Positions 22,722 to 26,875 are shown, numbered from the stretch's first letter. The stretch is DNA of 64,000 nt from an uncultured Anaerobiospirillum sp. (GCA_944390115.1 CALXOW010000011.1:431-64430); one strand, 5' to 3'. Numbers and translations: made by a program. The notes: generated from the sequence alone by a model not told the origin.

Positions 22722-23396
22722 TTAGGCCTTGAGCCAATCGGCCGGGAACATGGCGGTGAGGAAGCCAGCCCACAGGTCGCTGGTTATGATATCGAAATGC
22801 TCAAATTCCTCATCCCACATCGGCGTGGTGCGCATATGCGCGCTCCAAGGACGGCCATCGGAGGTGCGGAAGATCACCATATAGGCTACGTAGAAGCGGT
22901 GGAACCAGACCTGAGCCTCATCACTGGGCTCTAAGACCTTAAGGCCATGCTCAGGGACGACTTCCGTGCTGGAGCCGATCATGAGCTCACGCACGTGGCG
23001 GTAGAAGAAATCGAGCAAGCCGTAGCCCACAAAAAGACGATAGGTCTCAGCATCCATGGACTGGGACTGCTCAGGCAGCAGCATAAAGTTAAGGCAAGCA
23101 AGGCAGCGCTTATACAGGTCCGGCGGGAGCACGCCGATGGCGGTGCGGAAGTTCTTAAAGCGCTGATAGCAGACTGGATCGAGGTTTTTGAGTTTCTTAA
23201 AGTAGCGGCGCAGCTCTTGGTTGCGCTTAGGCTCCACCGTGAAGTCAAATTTAGCGGCATCGGCCTCAATAAAGCCCTTATGGGCGGCCCAAAAGGCCTG
23301 ATAATTTTGCGGCTCATGGCAGCGCGCAATGAAGGCCTGCTATTGCGGCTGTGTTTCCATTATGGGAGATTGCTTAATCTCGCTGAACAAGCTCAT
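22722..23396 (-). pseudogene. Paralog 5 of the unrecognised FKKIK-DP family, interrupted by an in-frame TAG at codon 19
   Basis: GAGGAG lies 6 nt upstream of the ATG at 23396. The frame reads MSLFSEIKQSPIMETQPQ-TAG(23340-23342)-QAFIARCHEPQNYQAFWAAHKGF...EPKRNQELRRYFKKLKNLDPVCY. Family similarity continues upstream of the track's GTG start at 23237. Confidence 0.6.
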
Positions 23397-23628
23397 GGCA
23401 GCTCCTCAAAAAAAAAATAAGAAGGCAAAGACGGTAACCCCCAGAGCGGCTGGGCAGCAGTGTGGGCATAAGCCCTACGCACCCAGCAGGTCAAGGCCGG
23501 GCTTGGTCTCACTGCTTGGGCCCCCAGGCTTCAGCACTAAGTTAATGTTGAAGCCTGGCGCGAGGGGGTAAGCCCCAAACCAGACAGGCTTATTGTGGGG
23601 CTCTTGACTGGATTGGGCTCAGCACTTG

Positions 23629-24327
23629 TTAGGACTGAGCGGCCTGAGCGGAGCGCTCGCGCAGTAAGAAGTGGAGATTGCGCAGGCGCACGTCGAAGTT
23701 GAGCTTAGTGCGCTCGATGCTTTGCTGGCTGCGTGCGTCACCTGTAAAGAAGGAGGCTAAGTTCTCTGTCCAAGTCTTGCCCTCATCGTTGTGAAGCAAG
23801 CACAGATAGGCGATGGCACCGCGCTTGAGCCAGGCTTCCTGAGCGGCAGAGAGGGGCTTGGCCACGAGATAGTCGAAGTTATAGTCCTCAGGCATCAGGT
23901 GCTCATCCTCAATCTGACCAAACAGGTCTTGGACAATCAAGGTGCAGCAGCGTGCCCGCAACGCCGCTGATGGCGTCAGGCTTTTATCTTCGGCTATGAT
24001 TTGGTCGAACGGTGCGCCTAAGAGCTCTTCGGAGAAGACCTTTGGGTCAATGAGGCCAATGCCGGTGCGAAATGGTAGCAGCTCACGGTAGAGCACTGGG
24101 TCAAAGGCCTTGATTTTCTTAAACCAACGGCGCACTGCGTGGGCCTGCTTGCGCGGCACCAAGATATCGAACTGTTGGCCATCGTGCTCCAAGAAATCGC
24201 GGTAGGAGGCCATGAGTTCGGCATAGGCCTGAGGCTCACGCAAGGCATCGACGTAGCTTGCGGCCGCATCCCAGCCGTCCTGCTTGTCGAGCTCGTCTTG
24301 CGCAATGATGAAGTTGGTGTTGGTCAC
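23629..24327 (-). CDS. Paralog 4 of the FKKIK-DP family (233 aa)
   Basis: The start is re-set to the GTG at 24327 (GGAGGA 7 nt upstream), because the longer track ORF overlaps the upstream gene. Motif: VPRKQAHAVRRWFKKIKAFDPVLYRELLPFRTGIGLID. Confidence 0.65.
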   Translation of the reverse strand: MTNTNFIIAQDELDKQDGWDAAASYVDALREPQAYAELMASYRDFLEHDGQQFDILVPRKQAHAVRRWFKKIKAFDPVLYRELLPFRTGIGLIDPKVFSEELLGAPFDQIIAEDKSLTPSAALRARCCTLIVQDLFGQIEDEHLMPEDYNFDYLVAKPLSAAQEAWLKRGAIAYLCLLHNDEGKTWTENLASFFTGDARSQQSIERTKLNFDVRLRNLHFLLRERSAQAAQS

Positions 24328-24380
24328 GGCAAATCCTCCAAAAGAAATGGAAATCAGTCTGGGCGCTCCTGCGTGCGCTT

Positions 24381-25037
24381 TTAGGCTTTGCTCAAGGAAG
24401 ATAATACGTTGATGGCCTCTAGCTGAGCGGCGGCAAGGAACCAGTTTCGGTCCAAGCCAATTTTCGGGTGCTCCTCTTCCTCTTCTACTGCGAGACTCCA
24501 ATGAGCGGGATCGCAATCTGCAAGCAACGGGAGATAGGCATTGGCAAAGCAGCGTGTCCAGTAAAGTACCTGCGGATTTTGCAACAATTGGAGTAGATTG
24601 CTTGGGTCGCGCTCAATTTTGCCTTTAAACAATTCCAGCATATATTTTTGGTAGGAGCTTTGGAACGGTTCCAATATGACCAAGAAGATCAGAGCATGAG
24701 CGGCGCTAGCTGTGATGAGACCTGCCTTGAGCCCATCACGTACGTCCTTTAGACCTTTAAGGATGTAATCGCGTAAGGACTCATCAAGCAATCCAACAGC
24801 GGTACGCATTGACTTCAGCAGCTTGAATGCCGGCGGGTCGATCTCTTTGATCAATTTGAAGATGCGTTTGACCTGGATGATGTCCGCAGCTGCGACCTTT
24901 CTCTCAAATTGGGCGGCATCTTCCTGGAAGAAGGCCAAGCATTTAGCTCTACGCTCTGCAAAATCAGGGGCATTTAGGGTTTGCTGCACGAGGTCTTGGA
25001 AGTCGGTAGCGGAATCTTGATTCTGGAGATCTGTCAT
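24381..25037 (-). CDS. Paralog 3 of the FKKIK-DP family (218 aa)
   Basis: Motif: AAADIIQVKRIFKLIKEIDPPAFKLLKSMRTAVGLLD. Confidence 0.65.
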   Translation of the reverse strand: MTDLQNQDSATDFQDLVQQTLNAPDFAERRAKCLAFFQEDAAQFERKVAAADIIQVKRIFKLIKEIDPPAFKLLKSMRTAVGLLDESLRDYILKGLKDVRDGLKAGLITASAAHALIFLVILEPFQSSYQKYMLELFKGKIERDPSNLLQLLQNPQVLYWTRCFANAYLPLLADCDPAHWSLAVEEEEEHPKIGLDRNWFLAAAQLEAINVLSSLSKA

Positions 25038-25053
25038 GGTGTTTGGCCTAGTC

Positions 25054-25758
25054 TTAAGCTGAGAATTGTTGGCGGCGCGTCAGCGTCGCTTGGATAGTGG
25101 GGCGGCAGGAGCCGCACGCCCAAAACATTCTGTCCAGGAGCCGGATGTTCGCGGGGCACTTCGGGTCGATTAGCTGTGCGCGGTCCGCAGTTGGTCCGTG
25201 CAAGAGGTCATTGTAGGCGATGTAGAAGCGCAAAAGCCAAAGGCAGGCCTTATCGTCGCGCGCCAGGCGCTGCACCAAGGCTAAGGGAAAGAGGTTGCTG
25301 TGGTTACGCTGCTCTGGTACCTCAAATTCCATGATTTGATTGTAGAGGGCGCTCACCAGCTGATAGGAGATTACGTGGTGCACGTGGCGCGCGTAGTCAG
25401 GATCCTCCTGGGGCCGCTCATGGGCTTTGGGTGCGGCCTGAAGGCGACTGGTCAGCTCAGGAAAGCTGGCTGCAAACCAGCGCTCATCGATGAGCCCTAA
25501 GGCGCACTGAAAGCGGTGCAGCTCTTGGTACAGGGCTGGGTCATAGCGCTCGAGCGCCACCATAAAGGTCGTGACTTGCTCTTGGCGCTTGGGCGGCACC
25601 TCGCGGTAAAAGCGCGCTTCCTCTTGCTGCAAAAAGGCTTGGTCGGCCTGCTGCCACTTCTGGCGGGCGCGCGGGCTATCCTGGCGGCGCGAGTAGCGGC
25701 TCGCTTGCAGGCCTCGTATGCCGCTTAAGCCACGTTGGAAGAGAGCCCAAATCAGCAA
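25054..25758 (-). CDS. Paralog 2 of the FKKIK-DP family (234 aa, TTG start)
   Basis: GAGGAAG lies 6 nt upstream of the TTG at 25758. A diverged motif reads VPPKRQEQVTTFMVALERYDPALYQELHRFQCALGLID. Confidence 0.6.
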   Translation of the reverse strand: MLIWALFQRGLSGIRGLQASRYSRRQDSPRARQKWQQADQAFLQQEEARFYREVPPKRQEQVTTFMVALERYDPALYQELHRFQCALGLIDERWFAASFPELTSRLQAAPKAHERPQEDPDYARHVHHVISYQLVSALYNQIMEFEVPEQRNHSNLFPLALVQRLARDDKACLWLLRFYIAYNDLLHGPTADRAQLIDPKCPANIRLLDRMFWACGSCRPTIQATLTRRQQFSA

Positions 25759-26032
25759 GATTAACTTCCTCTGCTAAGGTGAGAGTTCGGTTGGACGGCC
25801 CACTGGTTACGCCGTTAACGCTGGAGCACTACTATCGCCGTAGTGCTGCTAACTTGGTAGCGCTCAAGGCCCCACCTTTCTGGCGGACGGCCGCTTTCAG
25901 GCAGCCTATTGCTTGAGGCCCGCATGCTGGCCTAGCTTGTGGTGCCGTGCCATCTGCCTGCACTCAGCGCGCTGTGACGCCTAGACTTATGGCGCGCCGC
26001 TGAGCCTAAAGGCGGCCTCAGCGTTGGGACCT

Positions 26033-26875
26033 CTAGGCTTGCGCTTCGTCTGAAGCGGGTTGCGCAGCTGGAGCTGATTGCTGGGCTTGGTCTGGCTGCT
26101 CAGCTGAAGCCTGCTGCTCATCTGTAGCAGGTTGCTCTGCGGCTTGCTGGTCTGCGGCTTGGGGCTTGGCGTCGGCCTTCTTCTTGGAGAGGCGCTCGCT
26201 TAGCATGCGATCGATGGTGCGTACCATGCCCCATTTGACGTTGAACAAGTCCTTGAGCTTGATGGTGCGGTCGACCGGCTGGTCCCACAGGCGCGAATCG
26301 TTGAGATGGCGCAAGATGATGTAGGCGTAGAGATACGACTTGAGCCAAAGGCGCAGCGGCGTCAGCTTCGCTTGGTCGGCGATAATCCGGTCGATGAAGC
26401 GGGAATTAATGCGCTTGTTGCCAGGTTCTGGGGGCGGCATGTGGTGTCCGACCTCAACATCCAACACGCGAATGATGTCGATGTAGAGGTGGCTGCGGCC
26501 CTCTTCTAAGGTGTGCTTGTGCGCGCTGTAGTCGCTGAGAAAGTCGCGGTAGCCTTGCAACAGCAGGTTAAATTGCTCTTCTTCAAGGCAGCCAAAGATC
26601 GTGCGCAGCGGCTTGAGCACGGTGAAGGCCTCAGGGTCAACTTCCTTAATCTTCTTGAACAGGCGCTTGACCTTAAGGGCGCGTTTGGGCGGCACCAGTT
26701 GATCGAACTTGTCCGCATATTTAGCGAAAAAGGTATGGCCATCACGGGAAATTTCACCAAAACTAGGCTCGCTCAGCATGCGGTTAACGAGCCGCTTAGC
26801 GTCAGCCTGAGCGGAGCGAAAGCGCGCCAGATCCTCAGGGGGCATGCTAATTTTGAATGGCTTTAGTTTTGACAT
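26033..26875 (-). CDS. Paralog 1 of the FKKIK-DP family (280 aa) with Q/A/E-rich C-terminal tail
   Basis: The start is re-set to the ATG at 26875 (GAGGAA upstream; MSKLKPFKISMPP). Motif: VPPKRALKVKRLFKKIKEVDPEAFTVLKPLRTIFG. Confidence 0.65.
   Translation of the reverse strand: MSKLKPFKISMPPEDLARFRSAQADAKRLVNRMLSEPSFGEISRDGHTFFAKYADKFDQLVPPKRALKVKRLFKKIKEVDPEAFTVLKPLRTIFGCLEEEQFNLLLQGYRDFLSDYSAHKHTLEEGRSHLYIDIIRVLDVEVGHHMPPPEPGNKRINSRFIDRIIADQAKLTPLRLWLKSYLYAYIILRHLNDSRLWDQPVDRTIKLKDLFNVKWGMVRTIDRMLSERLSKKKADAKPQAADQQAAEQPATDEQQASAEQPDQAQQSAPAAQPASDEAQA

Follow-up and report, generated by a model that had tools for sequence, protein, structure and literature searches.

What are the five related genes that stand head to tail in a chromosomal stretch of an Anaerobiospirillum, and are they a native part of that chromosome? 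The stretch analysed here (64,000 nucleotides (nt); hereafter, the window) comes from an uncultured Anaerobiospirillum sp. of the chicken gut (GCA_944390115.1, CALXOW010000011.1:431–64430), a member of the gut-associated Succinivibrionaceae. Five minus-strand open reading frames (ORFs), P5 to P1 in the direction of transcription, occupy positions 22722–26875. An original prediction, made from the sequence alone, had described them as tandem paralogs of a family that it could not place, and had suggested an arms-race role and, together with an adjacent repeat-containing gene, a cryptic integrated replicon or new accessory module. Our analysis showed that P1–P5 are genuine genes, that the protein family to which they belong was previously undescribed and is so far known only from Anaerobiospirillum, and that it stands in tandem arrays of one to nine copies at no fewer than three chromosomal sites. 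The best explanation overall is a genus-private family, maintained in old chromosomal arrays, whose products we infer to be non-enzymatic binders; we place the probability of this reading at about one half. Anaerobiospirillum is a little-studied, spiral, gut-mucosa-associated and occasionally pathogenic genus, and the family is among its few genus-defining gene sets.

Five tandem paralogs of an undescribed family

The five ORFs were recovered as head-to-tail genes at the positions originally described (Table 1), with start codons selected by ribosome-binding site and overlap with the upstream gene. Their pairwise identity is about 23%–37%, and they can be aligned over their whole length. BLASTP linked nine of the ten copy pairs at E ≤ 5e-3 (database size 1e6; best 2e-16), and the five copies matched the family hidden Markov model (HMM) with E-values of 3e-39 to 6e-63 (P4, 3e-46; P5, 6e-63), being its sole matches in the window. 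The quoted sequence motif and its later W/AY segment were likewise found in the array, in the form F..xVPPKR..VKR.FKKIK..DP..Y..LK.FRTA.GLL followed by W..RF..AY..L; two copies deviate from it, P3 with VAAAD replacing VPPKR and P4 with VTTFMVALERYDP. The isoelectric points (pI) span 5.2–9.2. The spacers measure 274 nt (P5–P4), 16 nt (P4–P3), 53 nt (P3–P2) and 232 nt (P2–P1).

The array converges, as had been noted, on a plus-strand gene (ORF772), from which it is separated by 73 nt holding a hairpin and T-run. This hairpin belongs to a 63-nt inverted repeat, I1 (22661–22723), between the convergent genes. At the other end, the array promoter presumably lies in the 470-nt spacer behind rsmC, which contains one sigma-70-like site (26956–26927; consensus match only).

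Table 1. Position and character of the array genes and of the features around them (window coordinates).
Feature	Position	Strand	Description
P5	26033–26875	−	First gene of the array; 280 amino acids (aa), pI 9.2; low-complexity, Q/A/E-rich C-terminal tail
P4	25054–25758	−	234 aa, TTG start, pI 9.2; furthest from the basic motif among the copies
P3	24381–25037	−	218 aa, pI 5.3; copy used for the structure model
P2	23629–24327	−	232 aa, GTG start with GGAGG ribosome-binding site, pI 5.2
P1	22722–23396	−	224 codons, broken by TAG at codon 19 (23342–23340)
Terminator-like hairpin and T-run	22652–22679	−	Ends the array; TGCCGTTAGTGGCA, then T-rich tail
rsmC–P5 spacer	26876–27345	−	470 nt; loose three-fold repeat (family D4)
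rsmC	27346–28473	−	16S rRNA m2G1207 methyltransferase; MTS and MTS_N domains, NF007023; upstream anchor, not a family member
ORF772	20330–22648	+	772 aa, convergent with the array; N-terminal region resembling a helix-turn-helix (HTH)
Five tandem GT4 glycosyltransferases	12745–18951	−	About 400 aa each; several borderline to Pfam 'GT4-conflict'
Glycosyltransferase (GT)-like 584-aa gene	10982–12736		Follows the five GT4 genes

No model in Pfam, NCBIfam, PADLOC or PHROGs matched any of the five proteins, and the same was true of ORF772. The sole sub-threshold library score was that of DUF2179 against P5 (17.2 bits; cutoff, 22.8), and all PHROG scores had E ≥ 0.11. A word-indexed search of 5.8 billion proteins returned 21 clusters, all of them close orthologues; such searches recovered the family incompletely, also when a profile of 28 sequences was used, and an exhaustive search was needed. 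HMMER applied to 1.84 billion cluster representatives identified 38 clusters at E ≤ 1e-3, 28 of them at E ≤ 1e-10. Barring short fragments and P0110, their members are 170–330 aa long and carry the same motif; P0110, a repetitive sequence of 657 aa, is probably spurious as a family member. The named members come only from 'Anaerobiospirillum sp.' and 'Candidatus Anaerobiospirillum stercoravium'. Viral and plasmid matches were absent for P5 and P2 in IMG/VR and for P2 in PLSDB and INPHARED (tblastn for the latter two), and no occurrence in phage genomes or viral contigs was found with PHROGs, BFVD, IMG/VR and INPHARED. The family is unrecognised as originally stated, in that no library model describes it, it is confined to one genus and its fold has no match (see below). 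Nothing catalogued comes near it in sequence or, provisionally, in fold. Expanded lineage-specific families without an assigned role are nevertheless a common phenomenon, and nothing here demonstrates an unusual mechanism.

Predicted structure and conserved residues

An AlphaFold2 model of P3, built with 33 diverse family members, had a predicted local distance difference test (pLDDT) score of 89.6 and a predicted template modelling (pTM) score of 0.87, with 11 helices and no strand. The model of P2 from a 14-sequence alignment was mediocre (pLDDT, 73). Taking E ≤ 1e-3 or a template modelling (TM) score ≥ 0.5 as a fold match, Foldseek identified no neighbour of the P3 model in PDB (best E, 0.42; TM ≤ 0.29), and the earlier P2 model had yielded nothing in PDB or BFVD. 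This was the outcome of the structural check proposed with the original prediction, and the models point provisionally to a new fold. With a confident AlphaFold2 model that lacks a PDB neighbour, the family lends itself well to experimental structure work. A profile match to the DC-SIGNR neck among PDB sequences (E 2e-8 / 3e-5) was rejected as an artefact because it summed five matches to a 19-residue helix motif, each with an i-Evalue > 20.

Lineage-specific helical paralogous families of host-associated spiral bacteria are among the nearest analogues in architecture. One of them, Borrelia paralogous family 12 (BBH37, PDB 8s2p), is likewise all-helical, about 200 aa long, present in many copies and limited to one genus. 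BBH37 appeared in the Foldseek list without significance (E about 1, TM 0.18–0.20). The Borrelia family is plasmid-borne, and its members are surface lipoproteins that carry signal peptides, whereas the present family is chromosomal and without them.

The sequences of P1–P5 contained neither a signal peptide nor a clear transmembrane-like segment, and the proteins appear to be cytoplasmic. Conserved columns (P3 numbering) comprise a hydrophobic/aromatic core (F44, W160, Y168 and W180) together with R52, K64, D67-P68, R78-T79 and G82. They include no constellation of His, Cys, Ser or acidic residues resembling an active site, so the proteins are probably not enzymes and would more plausibly act as non-enzymatic binders.

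Arrays at three or more chromosomal sites

Arrays elsewhere were located by running the family HMM over related loci (L001–L029), and a genome scan with rsmC added relatives of the window's own site (site A). Tandem arrangement proved to be the rule. At site A, the array follows the housekeeping run lptD-surA-pdxA-rsmA(ksgA)-rsmC, and rsmC is followed by a family gene in L001–L004, L023, L024, L028 and L029. The same-species contigs (L001–L004) have five copies, of which P3 in L002 is split into 54 + 142 aa. A lineage with housekeeping genes about 95%–97% identical to those of the window (L027 with L028) has six, the extra paralog (P0133 type) standing between P5 and P4; the P5–P4 spacer of the window holds no remnant of it. 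In L027/L028, an insertion with a G+C (GC) content of 0.395 interrupts the array behind P4. This insertion (L027 3005–6851; L023 11539–15385) lies between P4 and P3 and is absent from the window; its two ORFs (601 and 627 aa), inserted convergently, are mutually paralogous and Asn/Lys-rich and have no Pfam match. The contig L023 stops within the same insertion and shows at least two copies. In Candidatus A. stercoravium (L024 and L029), site A has one copy, the orthologue of P2, to which it is 49% identical over 231 aa in L024.

At site B, the order is TerC, a Mutator-domain protein, MYG1, a 405-aa gene, the array and a convergent 481-aa membrane protein. Copy numbers there are two plus a small HTH gene in the A. 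stercoravium-like L019, at least three in L006 and nine in both L021 and L022. The 405–412-aa protein (L021 8768–9985; L019 7800–9038) is conserved and combines a PPPPP linker with a short tail of helical character; a gap of 16 nt separates it from the first family gene downstream, and it may share an operon with the array. Neither site-B neighbour (405 aa and 481 aa) matched anything in Pfam, NCBIfam or PDB. A family subgroup, the first genes of site-B arrays (P0098, P0099, P0105 and P0107), has an additional conserved motif at the C-terminus, LEY....PTPGF....G.DPFA.L, that is absent from the window copies. Site C, adjoining pfkB (L025), contains three intact and two fragmented copies. A single family copy was found in L009; the 300-aa ORF beside it (L009 1690–2613), with a marginal family-HMM score (E 0.035), may be a very diverged family member.

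Is the window array part of an integrated replicon?

The array and ORF772 (19.4–27.3 kb) had been proposed to constitute a cryptic integrated replicon or a new accessory module. What suggests a replicon is ORF772 itself, which is convergent with the array and has a weak HTH signal (GerE, E 0.079). Within it, ten exact copies of CCGTGTACC are spaced at 33 nt with 24-nt variable spacers (21422–21727). In all ten, Pro-Cys-Thr is spelled CCG-TGT-ACC, even though TGT is the less used of the Cys codons (22%). Because this minor codon recurs in each copy, the repeats would seem to be under constraint at the DNA level, as putative binding sites, beyond that at the protein level alone. The repeats sit within a conserved coding gene and number nine in the same-species contigs.

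The genomic context contradicted the replicon proposal, which we now regard as very improbable. Contigs of the Candidatus A. stercoravium type (L024 and L029), with rsmC 73% and rsmA 90% identical to the window, retain the gene order. In L029, rsmC is followed by one family gene, a convergent 329-aa gene with a 1136-aa protein, five GT4 genes and a 580-aa gene; in the window, the array is followed by ORF772, 1.4 kb without a long ORF, five GT4 genes and the GT-like 584-aa gene. Since the order rsmC, family gene, ORF772-like gene and GT4 is kept across species, the neighbourhood predates the species split. The GC content of the array (0.56) equals that of the window. No replication initiator (Rep) was recognised in ORF772 or the five paralogs, and no integrase, transposase, tRNA, att-like or direct-repeat border flanks the block, the nearest integrase in the window being at 40.4 kb. 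Plasmid, phage and IMG/VR collections gave no match, and no ORF772 accompanies the arrays at sites B and C. The site-A region is ancestral chromosome, not an integrated replicon. With regard to relatives carrying the array in syntenic position without the HTH/repeat gene, the array proved to be syntenic as envisaged, whereas the HTH/repeat gene proved to be syntenic with it.

ORF772 homologues range from 718 to 877 aa, with the 1136-aa relative at the same position in A. stercoravium-like contigs, and among the family sites an ORF772-like gene occurs at site A only. Over the N-terminal 210 residues of ORF772, the 1136-aa protein shows 47% identity, and it resembles ORF772 in the C-terminal region as well; an array of 33-nt repeats is absent from it. 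The family was found not to be homologous to ORF772 (hhalign probability, 0.1%) or to a 1141-aa ORF, and ORF772 not to be homologous to HTH170, whose gene stands behind the site-B arrays of A. stercoravium. The interval that separates ORF772 from the GT cluster in the window contains an 83-aa minus-strand ORF at 19168–19419 (69 aa as called in L001–L004, with about 82% identity) and a stretch of about 0.9 kb devoid of long ORFs (19420–20329), for which Rfam gave no match.

Divergence, selection and turnover

The best identities within an array are 24%–34%, and orthologues elsewhere reach 50%–91%; copies within one array are as distant from each other as from copies at other sites. Clear orthologues at other loci (50%–91% identity) exist for all window copies but P3 and P1. 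Because identity within the array is low and orthologues elsewhere are far closer, the copies are, judging from these comparisons, anciently diverged, with no recent amplification. The notion of tandem amplification consequently stands in part: the array is tandem and its copy number varies by lineage, whereas a recent expansion is contradicted by the identity of about 25% and the presence of orthologues in sister lineages.

Selection was estimated between orthologues as dN/dS (omega) by the Nei–Gojobori method, paralogs (about 25% identity) being saturated at synonymous sites. Omega was 0.04–0.32 for family orthologues and 0.01–0.20 for flanking housekeeping genes; it is two to four times higher in the family, which evolves more rapidly than the core genes. 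P5 orthologues in L001, L023 and L027 are 84%–94% identical (omega, 0.24–0.29), P4 orthologues are 86%–95% identical, and P2 has an omega of 0.09–0.27. Within the proteins, the comparison with L027 gave 0.08 for a conserved core of 51 residues and 0.27 for the remainder. Instead of the arms-race signature that had been expected, orthologues show purifying selection. Birth-and-death evolution under purifying selection, with no gene-wide positive selection, describes the pattern of these sequences.

P3 departs from its neighbours. It is 60% identical in L027, where neighbouring copies are 86%–93% identical, and has dS = 0 against L001, where P1 and P2 have dS of 0.2–0.3. Because its divergence is discordant with that of neighbouring copies, the locus looks like a recombination mosaic in which the P3 allele may have been replaced within the array.

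Loss is ongoing, as seen in the nonsense P1 of the window, the split P3 of L002 and the fragments of L025. At P1 codon 19 (23342–23340), an in-frame TAG stands where the intact 224-aa orthologue P0001 has Tyr, and a related strain in metatranscriptome runs X9 and X10 has TAT (23340 C>A). The TAG allele also occurs on an independent DNA contig (X1; word depth, 140), and its 171-aa protein (P0025) was called on six contigs. Because orthologues have Tyr/TAT and the TAG recurs on independent DNA, the stop codon is genuine; P1 is here a nonsense allele or restarts at GTG 23237 to give 171 aa. Such losses are what would be expected if the ORFs were decaying, non-functional remnants. That explanation is hardly tenable for the array as a whole, given that omega is 0.04–0.32 with hundreds of synonymous changes tolerated, that the ORFs are intact across lineages with dS up to 1.7, that the AlphaFold2 model is confident and that metatranscriptome contigs cover P4-P3-P2.

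Those contigs come from two faecal metatranscriptome runs, each with one contig of 2.5–2.7 kb over 23201–25876, from upstream of P4 to the start of P1. Contig word depth, a rough measure of expression, was 17–19 for P4-P3-P2, 3–8 for P5 and 0.5–7 for rsmC/rsmA. The depths are compatible with a P4-P3-P2 operon whose transcription is no weaker than that of the neighbouring genes.

Possible roles of the family

As non-enzymatic binders, the proteins could work in two parts. A 50-residue, Lys/Arg-rich helix-DP-helix core would probably dock on a partner shared by all paralogs, be it a nucleic acid or a conserved protein, and the remainder, which evolves three times faster (omega about 0.27), would probably confer a paralog-specific target. 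As to what such binders are for, our best single guess, and a tentative one, is a standing panel of intracellular immunity-like neutralisers. Array architecture, copy-number turnover, pseudogenes and expression of a type VI secretion system (T6SS) in the genus favour it; tandem, diverged small paralogs in variable copy number (site A, 1–6; site B, 2–9) are a typical feature of immunity arrays. In architecture, the closest known systems include orphan immunity arrays, namely the T6SS auxiliary clusters of Vibrio cholerae and the acquired interbacterial defence clusters of Bacteroidales, which likewise have same-strand, tandem, diverged small paralogs, variable copy number and pseudogenes. Unlike those arrays, the arrays described here have no effector, T6SS or mobile-element gene beside them, show no sequence or fold similarity to Pfam Imm/Tsi, are limited to one genus and contain a single family each. 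The T6SS is expressed in Anaerobiospirillum of the chicken caecum (PMC13040750), and a T6SS-active genus is a further point of likeness.

Several points weigh against the immunity-like guess and the broader explanation in which it is embedded. No toxin, VgrG, Hcp, PAAR, Rhs or contact-dependent inhibition (CDI) gene was found within 10 kb of the family genes in the window and L001–L029, by Pfam lists and our own scans in a neighbour search covering roughly ten loci. Immunity families usually spread widely by transfer, and the present family does not leave its genus; immunity proteins rarely have a basic motif under such strong conservation; and selection between orthologues is purifying, not diversifying. 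The term non-enzymatic draws solely on the missing conserved polar constellation, the new fold emerged from comparison with PDB and BFVD only, and word depth is a poor measure of expression to which DNA carry-over may contribute.

The basic core could instead mark the proteins as regulators or adaptors, in which the helix-turn(DP)-helix would bind DNA or RNA and the variable remainder would sense signals. A conserved binding domain joined to a diverging sensor domain is the pattern of transcription-factor families, and here the most conserved segment consists of two basic helices whose omega is 0.08 against 0.27 elsewhere, in proteins that appear cytoplasmic; two sites also adjoin RNA-processing genes (rsmC and MYG1). 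We nevertheless consider this role doubtful, as the helix-DP-helix core matched no HTH or other nucleic-acid-binding Pfam model even at E 0.1, no neighbour of the TetR, GntR or RNPP type emerged from Foldseek, three of the five copies have an acidic pI (5.2–6.2), and it would be unusual for one tandem operon to hold nine regulators of the same family. Export of the proteins as effectors by the T6SS or another route, acting on host cells or competitors with a conserved N-terminal half for loading and a variable part as the active surface, seems rather unlikely. Many effector families are genus-restricted, all-helical, of novel fold and tandemly expanded, as this family is, and the PPKR..KVKRLFKKIK stretch resembles a bipartite nuclear-localisation signal of eukaryotes; the genus, moreover, is mucosa-associated and expresses a T6SS (PMC13040750). 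Against export stand the lack of a secretion-system, chaperone or immunity gene adjoining any array, the lack of small immunity ORFs between the copies, the purifying selection, and similarity that runs along the entire protein rather than a modular signal with a variable toxin.

The GT genes near site A raise the further possibility, which we consider improbable, that the proteins assist in glycosylating the cell surface or flagellin, as accessory factors or by setting specificity. In both species, site A is followed by five tandem GT4 genes and the GT-like 584-aa gene, and the single-copy locus L009 lies near an MptE-like/PseD-like gene. Tandem paralogs beside GT runs are also known from the maf/Cj1318 flagellin-glycosylation islands of Campylobacter, another motile, mucosa-associated spiral bacterium. 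Unlike the proteins of those islands, with which it shares no homology, the present family has no MptE-like domain, and only some of its sites adjoin glycosylation genes. Sites B and C have no recognisable glycosyltransferase; at site A the array is divergently oriented, with ORF772 and 1.4 kb between it and the GT cluster, and since GT genes are common their proximity could plausibly be due to chance.

Were the immunity- or effector-like roles true, the arrays would represent a conflict system that is invisible to Pfam Imm families and PADLOC and is unlinked to secretion genes; nucleic-acid binding, if true, would define a new binding fold. A bolder proposal, to which we attach low odds, would unite the new fold with a genus-private recognition repertoire, either as a T6SS-tied immunity/effector class without the usual linkage or as host-directed proteins whose PPKR..KVKR.FKKIK core would serve for nuclear targeting or nucleic-acid binding in the caecal mucosa.

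Other features of the window

Beyond the GT genes, a low-GC island (8500–10900; 0.41 vs. 0.56) contains an ORF resembling a PD-(D/E)XK family transposase (9110–10105, plus strand). A tyrosine recombinase at 40441–41367 is followed by two ORFs of 707 and 422 aa without assignment and a TraD/TraG/TrwB-like coupling protein (46158–48923); the region 40441–49549 may be an integrated conjugative or mobilisable element, unrelated to the array. At 57802–62842, a tRNA-Arg/His/Leu cluster lies beside a 1458-aa type IIG restriction-modification protein similar to Eco57I/MmeI.

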